From IMG/VR virus record IMGVR_UViG_3300036760_000504, positions 1 through 53,893 of that record: a DNA stretch of 53,893 bases; one strand, given 5' to 3'. Numbering within the stretch: the stretch's first letter is position 1; each line of letters opens with the position of its first letter. The translations under genes were made by a program, and so were the position numbers. Source of the stretch: a virus (Duplodnaviria > Caudoviricetes). The notes under the pieces are model-generated. The model was not told the origin of the DNA and did not search any database. It worked only from the letters and a program-made list of their open reading frames with translations. This document shows, in pieces, positions 16,237 through 20,565 of the stretch.

Positions 16237-17560
16237 CGTCACGCCAATTTCGGCGGCTTACACGCCGCCGGCCAACCCCGAGGCCGAGCAGTCGGTGTTG
16301 GGGGCCATCCTGGTGCGCCCGGGGGTCCTGGACCTGGTGGCGGTGCTTATTACTCCTGCCGACTTCTACCGGGAGGCTCATGGCAACATCTACCAGGCCA
16401 TGCTGGATTTGCGGGACAGCGGCAAACCAGTGGATTTAGTGACCGTCACCGCCCTTTTGAAAGAGCGGGGAAAGCTGGAGGGGGCGGGGGGGCCGGTGTT
16501 CCTGGCCGGGCTCAGTGAGCAGGTGGGGTTTGCCACCAACGCCGAATATTACGCCCGGGTGGTCAAGGACAAGGCGAGGCTGCGGCGCTTCATTGACAAG
16601 ACGCAGGCGGTGACTGGCGCGGCCTTTGGCCCTCAGGAAAACGTCTCAGAATTTTTAGAGACTGCGGCCCAAGAGATTCTTGATTCTACCGGCAGCGCCC
16701 ATGAAAACGAGGCGGTGTCTCTCCAAACGATGGTGGAGACACAAAGCTCAGTAGTGGAGCAGCAGTTTTACGAGAAGGAACCAACCGGGATTCCGGTGGG
16801 CTACCTTGACCTGGGCCGGCTGATTTCATGGGAGCCTGGGGACCTGATCATCTTGGCGGCGCGCCCTAGCATGGGCAAGACCGCCCTGGCGCTCAACTTC
16901 ATGCTCAAAGTGGCGGCGGCCGGGTCCCATGCCGGCATTATCACCCTGGAAACCAGTAAGGAGAAGCTGACCCGGCGCTTCATGTCCATCATCGGCCGGA
17001 TCAACGGGCACCGGATGAACCAGGGGCGCCTTCAGGCCAGCGAATGGGTGCAGTTTGTCAAACTGAGGGAGCAGGTAGAGGGCCTGCCGATCTGGATAGA
17101 TGATACGCCCTCGCTGAACATTGCTGAGATACGGGCCCGGGCCAGGAACCAGCGCAAGGCTGGCCAGCTTGACTTCCTGGTGGTGGACTATCTGCAACTT
17201 GCCAAGCCCTTGAAGCGGGGCCGGAGCCGGGAGGAGGAAGTGGCTGAACTGAGCCGGGGCCTCAAGTCGCTGGCCAAAGAGCTCAACATCCCGGTCCTGG
17301 CGGTGTCGGCACTGAACCGCAAATTCGCCGAGCGGACGAACAAGCGGCCCCAGCGGTCGGATTTGCGGGAAAGTGGCGCCATTGAATTTGACGCTGACAA
17401 GATCATGTTTCTTTACCGGGAGGAGGAGGACAAGCCGAATGACGATAAGGTGCGGGGTATTGCCGAATTGGACGTGGACAAGCACAAAGACGGGCCGACG
17501 GGAAAGGTGAAGCTGGCCTTTCAGAAAGAGTTTTTCCGGTTCGAGGATCTGGCGCAATGA
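16193..17560 (+). CDS. dnaB: Replicative DNA helicase DnaB
   Basis: EAEQSVLGAIL, AARPSMGKT, VVDYLQL, SDLRESGAIEFDAD, KHKDGPTG. Confidence 0.95.
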   Translation: MSPVKPVKQLPAPNNVTPISAAYTPPANPEAEQSVLGAILVRPGVLDLVAVLITPADFYREAHGNIYQAMLDLRDSGKPVDLVTVTALLKERGKLEGAGGPVFLAGLSEQVGFATNAEYYARVVKDKARLRRFIDKTQAVTGAAFGPQENVSEFLETAAQEILDSTGSAHENEAVSLQTMVETQSSVVEQQFYEKEPTGIPVGYLDLGRLISWEPGDLIILAARPSMGKTALALNFMLKVAAAGSHAGIITLETSKEKLTRRFMSIIGRINGHRMNQGRLQASEWVQFVKLREQVEGLPIWIDDTPSLNIAEIRARARNQRKAGQLDFLVVDYLQLAKPLKRGRSREEEVAELSRGLKSLAKELNIPVLAVSALNRKFAERTNKRPQRSDLRESGAIEFDADKIMFLYREEEDKPNDDKVRGIAELDVDKHKDGPTGKVKLAFQKEFFRFEDLAQ

Positions 17561-19245
17561 CTTCCCCTGACCGCCGCCGGCCTGAGAGGATTGGTATGAA
17601 AGTCCAGTTGATAAACGCCGATGTGCTGGAGGGGCTGGGAAAATTCCCCGACAATCACTTTGACTCCTGCGTCTGCGATCCGCCTTATGAATTAGGTTTT
17701 ATGGGCAAGAAATGGGATTCAACCGGCATCGCCTATTCGGTGGAGATGTGGCGGGAGGTGCTGCGGGTTTTGAAGCCGGGGGCGCACCTGCTGGCCTTTG
17801 GGGGCAGCCGGACTTATCACCGGCTAGCCTGCGCCATTGAGGACGGCGGGTTTCAAATTCGCGATCAACTGCAATGGATTTTTGGCTCCGGGTTTCCTAA
17901 ATCCCTGGACGTTGGGAAGGCGATTGACAAGGCGGCGGGGGCGGAGCGGACTGAAAAAGTTTGGACTGATCGCTATAAGGATGGGAAAACCCGCCAAAAT
18001 CTTGGGCCGATAGGAAATCTCTGGCCGCATGCGAATGGCAATGAGGCGACCGTCCCGGCCACAGACCTCGCCCGGCAATGGGACGGCTGGGGCACGGCCT
18101 TGAAACCGGCGCATGAGCCGATCGTGGTGGCCCGGAAGCCCCCAGAGGGCACGATCATTCAGAACGTGCTCAAGTGGGGGGCCGGGGCGATAAACGTGGC
18201 GGGGTGCATGATCCCGGTTTCTAAAGAGGATGCGGAGCATACGGCGAGGCCAAACTTAAAAGGTAAAATATCTGCTCCCGGAGGCAAGTTATGGGTAATG
18301 AGAAAATATAAACAAGAACACGATATTTCAAGCGGCCGTTGGCCCGCCAACGTGATTCACGACGGCTCTGATGAGGTGCTGGCGGAGTTTGAGAAATCCG
18401 GGAATAGGCCGTCCGGGGCCATGAAGAAACCCTACACCTATAAGAATAACGGGTTTTCAATGGGTGCGCCTTCTGGCGAGACTCGGGCAAACCATGAATC
18501 GAACACCGGCTCCGCCGCCCGCTTCTTCTACTGGGCCAAAAGTTCACCGGCGGAAAGAAATAAAGGACTTGACAGTACCTATACCGTCAAGTATAATATA
18601 CCCAAAATAGGAGGGGTATTATGCAAAGGCGTGGGTATGGTTCTGGTGGAATTACTGCAAAAGGTTATGTCAGAATCAACCGTGACATGGAGCATAGGCG
18701 AGTCTGGCGAAAGCATTATGGGCCAGTGCCCGTCGGGTTCTTTATCCACCATAAAGACCTTGATAAGCAAAATAACGACATCACAAATCTTGAACTTATT
18801 GACACCCTCACTCATAAACGACTGCATAGCGGGTGCGAACTCAGAGACGGAGAGTGGTGGAAGCCTTGCCGGAAGTGCGGCGAAATTAAGCCAGTCTCAA
18901 CCGAATATTACCAACGGAAGCCAAGCGGAATTAGCCCATGGTGTAAGTCTTGCTGTGTCAGAAATGCTGTCAGTAATAAGCGACGCCGAAAATTGGAAGC
19001 CCTCAAGAAATACCCATAGCACGGTCAAGCCCCTGTCCCTCATGACCTACCTGGTGCGTCTGGTGACTCCGCCGGGGGGCCTGGTGCTGGATTGTTTCTG
19101 CGGGAGTGGAAGCACCCTCATCGCTGCGGCCAAGGAAGGGTTTGACAGCGTGGGGATTGATAAAGAAGCGGCCTACGTTGAAATGAGCCAGAAGCGAATT
19201 GCGGGGGAGATGGGTATGCTGTGCGAGGTGTCCATTGAAGATTGA
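17557..19245 (+). CDS. N6/N4 DNA methyltransferase (beta order) with about 145-aa in-frame insertion; start may be 17596
   Basis: CDPPYELGF, GSGFPKS, ALKPAHEPI, GRWPANV, HSTVKP, LDCFCGSGST. Confidence 0.88.
   Translation: MTSPDRRRPERIGMKVQLINADVLEGLGKFPDNHFDSCVCDPPYELGFMGKKWDSTGIAYSVEMWREVLRVLKPGAHLLAFGGSRTYHRLACAIEDGGFQIRDQLQWIFGSGFPKSLDVGKAIDKAAGAERTEKVWTDRYKDGKTRQNLGPIGNLWPHANGNEATVPATDLARQWDGWGTALKPAHEPIVVARKPPEGTIIQNVLKWGAGAINVAGCMIPVSKEDAEHTARPNLKGKISAPGGKLWVMRKYKQEHDISSGRWPANVIHDGSDEVLAEFEKSGNRPSGAMKKPYTYKNNGFSMGAPSGETRANHESNTGSAARFFYWAKSSPAERNKGLDSTYTVKYNIPKIGGVLCKGVGMVLVELLQKVMSESTVTWSIGESGESIMGQCPSGSLSTIKTLISKITTSQILNLLTPSLINDCIAGANSETESGGSLAGSAAKLSQSQPNITNGSQAELAHGVSLAVSEMLSVISDAENWKPSRNTHSTVKPLSLMTYLVRLVTPPGGLVLDCFCGSGSTLIAAAKEGFDSVGIDKEAAYVEMSQKRIAGEMGMLCEVSIED
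18569..18597 (+). promoter_or_regulatory. Consensus sigma70 promoter inside the MTase gene, driving the nested HNH
   Basis: TTGACA(18569)-17 bp-TATAAT(18592); AGGAGG RBS before ATG 18621. Confidence 0.85.
18621..19019 (+). CDS. HNH endonuclease nested in an alternative frame of the MTase
   Basis: GYVRI..EHRRVW..HHKDLDKQNNDITNLELI..HKRLH, plus C-terminal CRKC/CKSC Zn finger; own promoter and RBS. Confidence 0.88.
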   Translation: MQRRGYGSGGITAKGYVRINRDMEHRRVWRKHYGPVPVGFFIHHKDLDKQNNDITNLELIDTLTHKRLHSGCELRDGEWWKPCRKCGEIKPVSTEYYQRKPSGISPWCKSCCVRNAVSNKRRRKLEALKKYP

Positions 19246-19399
19246 CTGCCCCGGCCCCCTGGATGTGGCCATCGCGATCCTGTCGCCGCTCATCGTGGCG
19301 GTGCTGACGGTGGTGTTTTTGCTGGGGTTTTGGGCGGCGGCGCTATGGCGGTGGGGGAGGGGAGAGGAAATTTAACCACAAAACGACAGGAGGGACGCT

Positions 19400-19609
19400 T
19401 TGAAAGAATCGGGCATTGTGAAATGGTTCAACGACGCTAAGGGGTTTGGTTTCATTGAGCGCAAAGGCAAGCCGGACGTGTTCGTGCATTATTCCGGGAT
19501 CGCCAGTAACGGCAAGGGGCGGCGGACCCTTTACAAGGGGAACTCGGTTGAGTTCGAGTTGGGCCAGGGCCCCAAGGGGCTTCAGGCGCTTGGCGTCATG
19601 GTCAAGTGA
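19400..19609 (+). CDS. Cold-shock domain protein (TTG start)
   Basis: [25 protein letters not shown]1/RNP2 motifs; AGGAGG RBS. Confidence 0.92.
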
Positions 19610-19627
19610 GCGGCAAGGAGAATAATC

Positions 19628-19879
19628 ATGGTTAGCTGGTTCTGGATTCCATTGGCGGCGTTCGGAGGCTTCATCTTGGGCGGCAATATCCTGGCGCTTT
19701 TATCATCTGGCCGGGAGGAAGATGCCTATTCTGATGGGTATGTAATTGGGCGTCATGTGGGATTTGAGGCCTGGATTAAGAGCATCGGGGGGGCAGGACC
19801 CGGGGGGCAAGCGGAACCGATATCCACCAACCCGCCGGACAATAATTGGAGTTCGGTTGAAAGGCTGGTGGCCCCATGA
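19628..19879 (+). CDS. Hypothetical membrane protein
   Basis: AAGGAG RBS; N-terminal TM segment. Confidence 0.55.
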   Translation: MVSWFWIPLAAFGGFILGGNILALLSSGREEDAYSDGYVIGRHVGFEAWIKSIGGAGPGGQAEPISTNPPDNNWSSVERLVAP

Positions 19880-20565
19880 AAAACTATATCAGCATGGGGT
19901 TTGGGGTTAATTCGGTCGCTCTGTACCTTGACCAGAAAGATAAAGGCGTAGATTTTGAGGCAGTCTATGTCGATCTTGAGTGTGATTGGCCCGAAACAAA
20001 AGAATATGTTGAAATGTTCTGCAATAAATATCCGGTGACAATTATTAAGCCAGGATATGTTAGGGAATCTTTAAGAAAGATTTATGATAATCTTTATGAT
20101 TATTGTATTGACATGAAAATCATTCCATATCGCACGCAAAGATGGTGTACAGCCAATTTTAAGGTTATTCCGTTGCTTCATTATTTCCAAACTCCATGTT
20201 TTGTCTTAATGGGCATAGACGCAGGAGAATCACATAGAGCAAAATTATCAAGCACTAAAGGAACTGAGAACCGTTTCCCCTTGATCGAAGATGGTATAGA
20301 CCGGAACGGTTGTATAGAAATCATTAAATCTCATGGATTGCCGGTTCCAGTAAAGTCAGGTTGTTGGTTTTGCCCTTTTCAACGGGTTTCCGAATTTAGG
20401 AAATTACGCAGATTGCATCCCGATCTATTCTGCAAAGCCGTAGAGATTGAAAAAAACTCTGGTAAATTTTTAGTGGCAACCAATACTTTGTCGAAAATCA
20501 TCAATGAGCCAGATGCCTTCCTTTTCGAGGAACTGGCTTATCCACCCTGCCAATGTGGGCTTTAA
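19876..20565 (+). CDS. PAPS-reductase-like (PP-loop) protein
   Basis: ISMGFGVNS, RWCTANFK, KSGCWFCPF, C-terminal CQC; AT-rich. Confidence 0.75.
   Translation: MKNYISMGFGVNSVALYLDQKDKGVDFEAVYVDLECDWPETKEYVEMFCNKYPVTIIKPGYVRESLRKIYDNLYDYCIDMKIIPYRTQRWCTANFKVIPLLHYFQTPCFVLMGIDAGESHRAKLSSTKGTENRFPLIEDGIDRNGCIEIIKSHGLPVPVKSGCWFCPFQRVSEFRKLRRLHPDLFCKAVEIEKNSGKFLVATNTLSKIINEPDAFLFEELAYPPCQCGL

Follow-up and report, generated by a model that had tools for sequence, protein, structure and literature searches.

The window analysed here, a complete viral record of 53,893 bases (IMG/VR record IMGVR_UViG_3300036760_000504; Duplodnaviria, Caudoviricetes) with direct terminal repeats at its ends, carries a DNA methylase gene (17557-19245, + strand; 562 aa) in which an insertion encodes an HNH nuclease in another reading frame and leaves the frame of the methylase open. 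This insertion is most probably a mobile HNH element that sits in a tolerant loop of the methylase, is dual-coded and is read through. Related elements were collected from viral, metagenome and genome contigs, and in these the methylase frame is free of stops where the nuclease gene is nested in a methylase gene and contains stops where the nuclease gene stands free.

An HNH nuclease gene out of frame in a phage methylase gene

The insertion lies between the methylase motifs ERNKGL (aa 333-338; nt 18553-18570) and RNTHSTVKP (aa 484-492; nt 19006-19032). A preliminary description of this DNA, made from the sequence alone, had put its length at about 435 nt with no stop in the methylase frame; by the spacing of the motifs it is exactly 435 nt (18571-19005, + strand), corresponding to 145 stop-free methylase codons, and the whole open reading frame (ORF) of the methylase from 17557 to 19245 has zero stops. 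The composition of the insertion is foreign to the gene, with a GC content of 0.469 versus 0.565 in the remainder of the methylase gene.

The nuclease ORF (18621-19019, + strand; 132 aa) runs in the third frame with respect to the methylase, as (18621-17557) mod 3 = 2, and ends with a TAG at 19017-19019 that is formed by the methylase codons CAT AGC. It encodes, as had been described, a complete protein with an HNH domain and a zinc finger: the protein matches PF13392 (HNH_3) with an E value of 8.7e-15 and 54.5 bits (curated cut-off 24.8), and an HH is found at residue 43, with CxxC motifs at 83 and 108. In an alignment of 15 HNH sequences, H43, H44, N52, N56, H65, H69, C83, C86, C108 and C111 are all invariant. 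The protein is therefore assigned to the HNH_3/His-Me finger nucleases by a profile score above the cut-off, the catalytic His and Asn residues and the zinc-binding Cys pairs. The phage genome contains one HNH copy. Homologues of the HNH protein number 78, with identities of up to 84%, and a search against a phage-genome collection gave partial matches only (31-51% identity, 22 records). The protein was modelled by AlphaFold2 (AF2) with a predicted local distance difference test score (pLDDT) of 89. Foldseek returned nothing for this model at E ≤ 0.001, with I-HmuI at E 0.39; in an exhaustive VIA search, I-HmuI was the top structural match (Z 5.9, root-mean-square deviation 3.3, 70 residues aligned), and only the I-HmuI chain reached Z ≥ 5, a score that is itself middling.

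On both sides of the insertion the methylase retains its motifs. PF01555 (N6_N4_Mtase) matches it as a single stretch over aa 36-546 (E 1.2e-28). The catalytic motif IV, DPPY, is located at aa 41-44 (17677-17688, + strand), the H-S-T-V-K-P motif that contains the HNH stop at aa 487-492 (19015-19032, + strand), and the S-adenosylmethionine-binding motif I, FxGxG (FCGSGS), at aa 514-519 (19096-19113, + strand), downstream of the insertion, where it shares the frame of the N-terminal part. In a 50-sequence alignment, D41, P42, P43, H487, T489, K491, P492, G516 and G518 are invariant. AF2, run with this alignment, modelled the methylase core well and assembled it across the insert, and Foldseek matched the model to M.BceJIV, CcrM and M.RsrI (E about 1e-9, TM(target) about 0.73) in alignments that cover the query on either side of the insert. 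The motif order DPPY ... HxTxKP ... FxGxG together with the predicted Rossmann-like fold identifies the protein as a putative beta-class methylase (PF01555) of the N6-adenine or N4-cytosine type. In the phage-genome collection, no record covered at least 80% of the methylase and every match was below 60% identity; the nearest homologue, from viral contigs, is about 52% identical.

Avoidance of stops in the methylase frame

To describe relatives of the element, four scans were combined. The HNH alignment found 353 relatives in metagenome contigs, of which the best 80 of 353 were examined, and 17 loci in genome contigs; the HNH protein found 31 loci in viral contigs, 24 with a real HNH; and the N-terminal part of the methylase found 80 loci in viral contigs. 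Nesting was scored in the loci whose HNH match extends over 90 aa or more (n = 118). The HNH gene is nested in a methylase homologue in 111 of these, with the methylase flanks in frame +1 of the HNH gene; both flanks are present in 90 loci, the C-terminal flank only in 19 and the N-terminal flank only in 2. The methylase frame is stop-free across the HNH gene in 111 of 111. Four loci are the only non-nested relatives in the set, and in each of them the HNH gene (L008:2965-3396, L197:1502-1858, L199:2501-2872 and L203:1171-1554) is free-standing and directly downstream of a methylase gene that is complete and belongs to the same family. At this locus level, 2-4 stops were counted in the corresponding frame of these four.

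Complete ORFs (n = 114) were collapsed at ≥97% identity to 82 non-redundant ORFs, 78 nested and 4 free-standing. All 78 nested ORFs, with identities of 43-84%, have 0 stops in the methylase frame, whereas a shuffle of their own codons predicts 1.35 stops per ORF (mean probability of none 0.20) and host codon usage predicts 4.7 (mean probability of none 0.025). The remaining forward frame of the nested ORFs contains 0-21 stops. In the corresponding +1 frame of the free-standing relatives, 2-6 stops are present in 4 of 4. It is thus the methylase frame, specifically, that avoids stops, and it does so only when the HNH gene is nested. This comparison answers the stop-depletion check that the preliminary description had called for, with an outcome in favour of dual coding.

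The same DNA is conserved unequally in its two frames. Among 73 loop-nested ORFs the mean identity is 67.5% in the HNH frame versus 44% in the methylase frame, and in 2628 of 2628 pairs the HNH-frame translation has the higher identity. The HNH is thus the conserved protein, whereas the methylase frame, although kept open, can change freely in other respects. Across 19 ORFs, divergence in the HNH frame is 0.40 at the first codon position, 0.30 at the second and 0.49 at the third, so that the third position is seemingly damped. No decayed HNH copy was found among the 114 complete ORFs.

These data bear directly on the view that the open frame reflects chance or inertia, with a dead or split methylase and only the HNH mattering. 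A synonymous shuffle with its own codons does leave the window ORF open in about 20% of draws, as such a view would require, but non-redundant relatives with identities down to 43% are open in 78 of 78 while 4 of 4 free-standing ones are closed, the methylase motifs are intact and invariant on both sides, and the predicted core fold assembles across the insert. We regard chance as scarcely credible.

A hypervariable loop before a nearly invariant motif

Both methylase flanks could be placed in 77 of the 80 viral methylase loci, and the HNH is absent from all 77. Aligned at the exact site of the insertion, as the preliminary description had advised, these insert-free homologues show only -9 to 126 nt (0-43 aa) between ERNxGL and NxHPTVKP, and their loop sequences are unrelated to one another (77/77). 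By sequence comparison, the element lies in a loop that is naturally hypervariable and that is followed directly by a nearly invariant motif. The suggestion that dual coding in a tolerant loop takes the place of splicing is supported by these 77 loops and by the 78 stop-free nested relatives.

The HNH stop lies in or beside the HPTVKP motif and its form depends on the lineage: CAT AGC gives TAG, ACT AAT gives TAA, TGT GAC gives TGA, and in another version GTT AAA, inside V-K, gives TAA. It had been noted that the TAG in the window arises from CAT-AGC and goes with HSTVKP in place of the usual HPTVKP, and the counts agree. Insert-free copies (n = 95) have HPT in 86 and HST in 4, versus HST in 46, HPT in 14, HAT in 8 and HNT in 4 of the invaded copies (n = 76). 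That HSTVKP might be unrelated to the insertion, as a native form in mycobacteriophage methylases, was considered and is overturned by the same counts. The overlapping stop may require the replacement of Pro by Ser, which may instead or also shield the invaded allele from its own nuclease.

Other features were observed at or near this site. In four insert-free loci (L049, L082, L083 and L089) a Cys-rich in-frame loop of 42-43 aa (e.g. ...KCATCS...GCNCP...) occupies the same position and, from its sequence, looks like a small zinc-binding insertion. A shorter and more divergent PF01555 methylase (L198:1887-3128) has the same HNH lineage nested before YPTEKP. Three tandem methylase paralogues are found in L006 and L007 (337-3616), with an HNH in the third only. 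The window methylase itself has a second patch of low GC (0.46-0.48) at 18200-18380, where AF2 confidence is low (aa 230-323) and the remaining frames hold no noteworthy ORF.

Absence of splicing signals and relatives within inteins

Because phage group I introns commonly carry HNH genes (discussed in section 3.5 of PMC11855218), the insert might be a group I or group II intron with an HNH ORF that is spliced from the mRNA, its open frame being incidental. The preliminary description had seen no intron or intein boundary motifs, and the searches agree with it. When 17000-20000 was scanned against Rfam with cmscan (E ≤ 10), intron families were absent and the only matches were mir-637 and ST7-OT3_4, both at E ≥ 1, although a very divergent ribozyme could escape covariance models. 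The HNH ORF and its signals occupy 451 of roughly 453 nt, leaving no room for a ribozyme core, and an intron offers no reason for stop avoidance in the host frame of 78 of 78 relatives. An intron is thus highly improbable.

Alternatively, protein splicing might remove the in-frame 145 aa as an intein of degenerate or unusual form, and more distant HNH relatives give this idea a basis. In four betaproteobacterial contigs of metagenome-assembled genomes (MAGs; L200, L205, L206 and L207), an HNH gene 45-53% identical to that of the window lies out of frame inside a recognisable intein, at about 2100-2950 of each locus, and this intein interrupts a ParB_N-methylase fusion at HP|TMKP. In L205 and L207 the intein has the motif pattern CLCPG...TGNHPF...SHN|T and matches Hint_2 (E 5e-5 and 3e-6) and Intein_splicing (E 7e-5 and 3e-4), in all cases below Pfam's own cut-offs. 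The window insert has none of these features. Its in-frame peptide (18571-19005) gave no Pfam match at E ≤ 0.01, and neither Hint_2 nor Intein_splicing was found; it starts with DSTY and ends with SRNT(H), with no Cys/Ser/Ala start of block A, no TxxH block and no HN end. Moreover, the 145 aa are almost entirely taken by the overlapping HNH ORF, and the peptide is poorly conserved (44% mean identity). We therefore consider an intein very unlikely in the window.

One HNH lineage may exist in three states centred on a few codons of a single gene family, namely free-standing just downstream of the methylase gene, nested out of frame in a tolerant loop and unspliced, and nested out of frame in an intein at HP|T, 2-3 codons away. 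It is possible, though we offer this tentatively, that these states record how homing endonuclease genes join or outlive self-splicing elements, and that dual coding in a loop is a general third route, besides introns and inteins, for a nuclease gene to live in a gene that survives.

Two further observations concern inteins. L202 has the same intein type, and a frameshift after the HNH places the C-terminal part of the methylase in another frame. In the methylases of the mycobacteriophages Lilac (L210) and Bobi (L213), an in-frame insertion of roughly 330 aa that starts with CLTADTEVLT follows ...WLYG; this is presumably the intein reported for that methylase family. The Bobi methylase is annotated in two pieces (genes 73 and 75).

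A conserved promoter on methylase codons

A sigma-70-type promoter, TTGACA-17-TATAAT (18569-18597, + strand), precedes the HNH gene with its -35 box on the methylase codons L-D (CTT GAC), and a Shine-Dalgarno (SD) sequence, AGGAGG (18609-18614, + strand), lies 6 nt before the HNH ATG. The promoter had been called perfect, and it matches the consensus at 12 of 12 positions. A promoter scan counted 2 sites in the region versus 1.5 ± 1.4 in shuffles, so the number of sites is itself unremarkable.

The strict pattern TTGACN-(16-18)-TAnnnT was searched upstream of the HNH ATG in nested non-redundant loci (n = 77) and is present in 55 of these versus 0 of the 4 free-standing relatives. Among the 55 promoter-bearing loci, the -35 box is in identical phase on the methylase codons G-L-D in 54. 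The -10 box lies 20-32 nt from the ATG in 41, while in the other 14 the ATG is merely 5-8 nt past the -10 box, a spacing that suggests leaderless mRNAs. A strong SD (AGGAGG, GGAGG or AGGAG) is found in 25 of the 77. The L-D codons read CTTGAC in 26 of 29 invaded methylases versus at most 2 of 51 uninvaded ones, a bound given by the position of CTTGAC outside the eight commonest L-D forms, which vary. This bias implies that the -35 box either belongs to the element or is under selection.

An inverted repeat with 11-bp arms, ACTTGACAGTA ... TACCGTCAAGT, is predicted as a stem over the -35 box and the promoter spacer (18567-18592, no strand assigned). The T-V-K codons native to the gene at 19021-19029 recur in the right arm of the repeat (ACC GTC AAG = T V K). 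This repeat could be a remnant of the target site, an operator or a product of chance. Beside it, we observed that CTTGAC (L-D codons) and GTCAAG (V-K codons) are mutually reverse complementary and that the insert has a second T-V-K (ACC GTC AAG) at its beginning; a similar repetition of flank residues at the start of an insert is described in the accessible text of the report on the ShiLan domain (PMC11855218), which is discussed below. In L204:1278-3089, on a contig titled actinobacterium MAG, an HNH of this lineage lies inside a methylase gene, and a promoter-like pattern occurs there in a different codon phase.

Conflicting histories of the HNH and the methylase

The identities of HNH and methylase were compared pairwise among 32 loci with complete genes (496 pairs) and are uncorrelated (R2 0.052). 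For example, the methylases of L174 and L179 are 46% identical and their HNHs 79%, while the methylases of L003 and L013 are 73% identical and their HNHs 54%. By the approximately unbiased (AU) test, the main split of the HNH tree (22 versus 10 rows) is rejected by the methylase data (p-AU 0.002), and a methylase clade of six is rejected by the HNH data (p-AU 3.4e-10). On a methylase tree of 97 rows, the label 'invaded' changes 10 times, with at least 3 changes forced by well-supported branches. Relatives are also found nested in other methylase subfamilies, inside an intein at HP|T or just past methylase genes on the downstream side. These comparisons favour transfer of the HNH between methylase lineages, although one clade of all invaded methylases is not rejected by the AU test (p 0.351).

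The conflict also bears on the possibility that the HNH is a working partner of the methylase, either in a compact restriction-modification-like or addiction pair or as a domesticated nuclease, with nesting to guarantee co-inheritance. Such a partnership would fit the constant link to the methylase family (among the 118 loci, 111 nested, 3 more in a methylase intein and 4 directly downstream), the complete ORFs without a decayed HNH (none in 114) and a methylase tree that allows a single origin (AU p 0.351). The same linkage is predicted for a homing endonuclease that targets the methylase gene, however, and the two histories conflict, with identities that do not correlate. Furthermore, the closest viral methylases without an insert, 77 in number, all lack the HNH, so that methylase function does not depend on it; residence of an HNH within an intein is characteristic of homing modules and atypical of restriction genes; and the nearest fold is that of a homing enzyme, I-HmuI. 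A partnership is accordingly unlikely, with somewhat more room than the splicing alternatives.

A model for the element and the points that weigh against it

The mobile, dual-coded element favoured here would work as follows. The insert (18571-19005) lies in a surface loop of a beta-class methylase, immediately before H-P-T-V-K-P, with the -35 box on the G-L-D codons, the -10 box after 17 nt, an SD, an ATG and a stop in the H-S codons. Neither RNA nor protein would be spliced; the methylase would be translated through the element, its loop gaining 145 residues, and selection keeps the methylase frame stop-free without conserving its sequence. The nuclease would cut insert-free methylase alleles near the HPTVKP codons and the element would be copied in by repair (homing), with the internal promoter in use and the 562-aa methylase active. 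An element of this kind would be a homing-type parasite; the indirect evidence for homing is the linkage of the HNH to the methylase gene in three contexts and the conflicting phylogenies.

Several observations weigh against this model or limit it. Taken alone, the open frame of the window is only suggestive: a synonymous own-codon shuffle keeps it open in 18-21% of draws, while host-gene codon usage keeps it open in 0 of 300 (4.8 stops expected), and the weight comes from the comparison across relatives. The strict promoter pattern is missing in 22 of 77 nested relatives, some of which have near matches. A search for sequencing runs that contain the element listed 2 DNA runs and no RNA run. 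The groups submitted to the AU test were named after both trees had been seen, which weakens the test, and one clade uniting all invaded methylases is compatible with the data (p 0.351), so that the methylase tree alone fails to establish repeated invasion of empty alleles. Two small HNH-defined clades are likewise not rejected by the methylase data (p 0.36 and 0.76), and the clade of the window, L003 and L117 (p 0.76) is compatible with co-inheritance of HNH and methylase. A close pair of invaded and empty alleles was sought to place the boundaries and none was found, the best methylase match being about 52% identical.

In addition, the read-through peptide may be more than a passive loop. 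It is rich in Ser, Leu and Thr and matches no Pfam family at E ≤ 0.01, and AF2 modelled aa 339-410 and 461-483 with a pLDDT of 65-82 and aa 420-453 with a pLDDT below 50. This partial confidence could be an artefact of constraints from the overlapping frame, or the peptide may be a new methylase domain that is being born by overprinting.

Comparison with known systems

HNH homing genes are usually thought to survive inside other genes only by means of an intron or an intein. The closest known case that departs from this view is the ShiLan domain, a stop-free in-frame insertion of 202 aa in a mycobacteriophage DNA methylase (ShiLan gp65 and relatives), as described in the accessible text of its report (Arsenault, Gosselin & Gogarten, Genes 2025;16:178, PMC11855218). 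It hides an HNH of 195 aa in the third frame, has no intron or intein by that account, and shows a disjunct distribution (PMC11855218). Decoupled phylogenies of such elements and their hosts had been shown earlier, according to the accessible text of that study (Gosselin et al., Genes 2023, PMC9957025).

The likeness to the window is close. The hosts are PF01555 phage methylases 46-49% identical to that of the window, the host frame is stop-free across the insertion, an HNH and zinc-finger ORF occupies the third frame, and signals of an intron or intein are lacking. Invaded alleles likewise have the Pro beside the insert replaced by Ser or Thr, by the published account (PMC11855218), and element and host are similarly decoupled (R2 0.001-0.12 in the ShiLan case versus 0.052 here). 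The differences concern site, lineage and expression. In Bipolar and MISSy the insert is found at TALKP.YEP / FEPIVVARKP, which corresponds to about aa 195 in the window methylase, whereas the window insert lies at aa 338/484, before HPTVKP. The ShiLan-type HNH has 184-195 aa versus 132 aa, and the two are 28% identical over 83 aa (pairwise E 3e-5). For ShiLan a leaderless GTG without a ribosome-binding site is proposed (PMC11855218), while in the window a promoter that matches the consensus perfectly is followed by an SD and an ATG; promoter and metagenomes each have 0 mentions in the accessible text of that report. Finally, the ShiLan type is reported there from actinophages, whereas the HNH family of the window comes from environmental viral contigs and MAG contigs of many phyla. 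From these sequence relationships, the window element is judged to be of the same kind as the ShiLan-type out-of-frame HNH insertions, but at a different site and of a different HNH lineage.

Both types were observed in one gene. L201, a contig titled Pseudolabrys MAG, encodes a methylase of 869 aa with two out-of-frame HNH genes, both read through (L201:805-1434 and L201:1933-2358). The HNH at the ShiLan site shares 56% identity with the one hidden in phage Bipolar (E 1e-65), and the second is of the window type, before HPTVKP.

A second methylase with a hidden ORF, here HNH-like, Pacc40 gp60, is presented in section 3.6 of the same report (PMC11855218), of which the accessible text is used here. 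Like the window, it has an out-of-frame nuclease ORF in a stop-free insertion of a phage methylase, and free-standing relatives of its nuclease adjoin related methylase genes. By the published description it differs in being a divergent helicase-methylase with another insert position and another nuclease lineage, and its free-standing relatives lie upstream of the methylase, whereas those of the window lie downstream (L008, L197, L199 and L203). Actinophage inteins with non-canonical, out-of-frame or antisense homing endonucleases are also described in the accessible part of a preprint (bioRxiv 10.1101/2025.01.02.630785). They share with the window a frame-3 nuclease in a host frame that must stay open, and relatives of the window HNH occur in such inteins (L205 and L207). 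The out-of-frame nucleases reported there are endonuclease VII-like and, by that account, have DNA polymerase, minor capsid, terminase and thymidylate synthase genes as hosts, unlike the window, which is without any intein.

Among nucleases of known structure, I-HmuI of phage SPO1 (PDB 1U3E), an HNH homing and nicking endonuclease, is 26% identical to the HNH model over residues 5-74, and both are His-Me finger proteins. I-HmuI differs in being encoded in a group I intron and in having additional DNA-binding domains, whereas the window HNH is a predicted nuclease.

A homing endonuclease gene can also enter a gene as a free-standing unit, as mobE does in nrdA of Aeromonas phage Aeh1, where it splits the host gene. 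As in the window, a nuclease gene without a self-splicing element lies in a conserved phage gene and host function survives. There, unlike here, the host is cut into two separately translated pieces rather than kept as one dual-coded polypeptide.

For an insertion at the site of the window, before HPTVKP, nothing published was found in a full-text library that lacks most subscription journals. The principle is already published in the ShiLan domain, and the interpretation given in the preliminary description is supported. The 2025 report proposed this third way from about ten actinophage sequences and, in its accessible text, without statistics (PMC11855218). To this the present analysis adds that the strategy is used again, at a second site and by another HNH lineage; that it is widespread in environmental phages, given 353 matching stretches in the metagenome scan, the best 80 of 353 examined; that selection is measurable as frame-specific avoidance of stops with natural free-standing controls; and that relatives exist in free-standing and intein-nested states. 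Moreover, a conserved internal promoter on host codons, followed by an SD leader or a leaderless start, offers a possible answer to the question, left open in that report, of how the hidden nuclease is expressed. This family also provides a clean natural data set for the evolution of overlapping genes, and the element of the window, compact and with clear signals, is a convenient candidate for bench work in E. coli.

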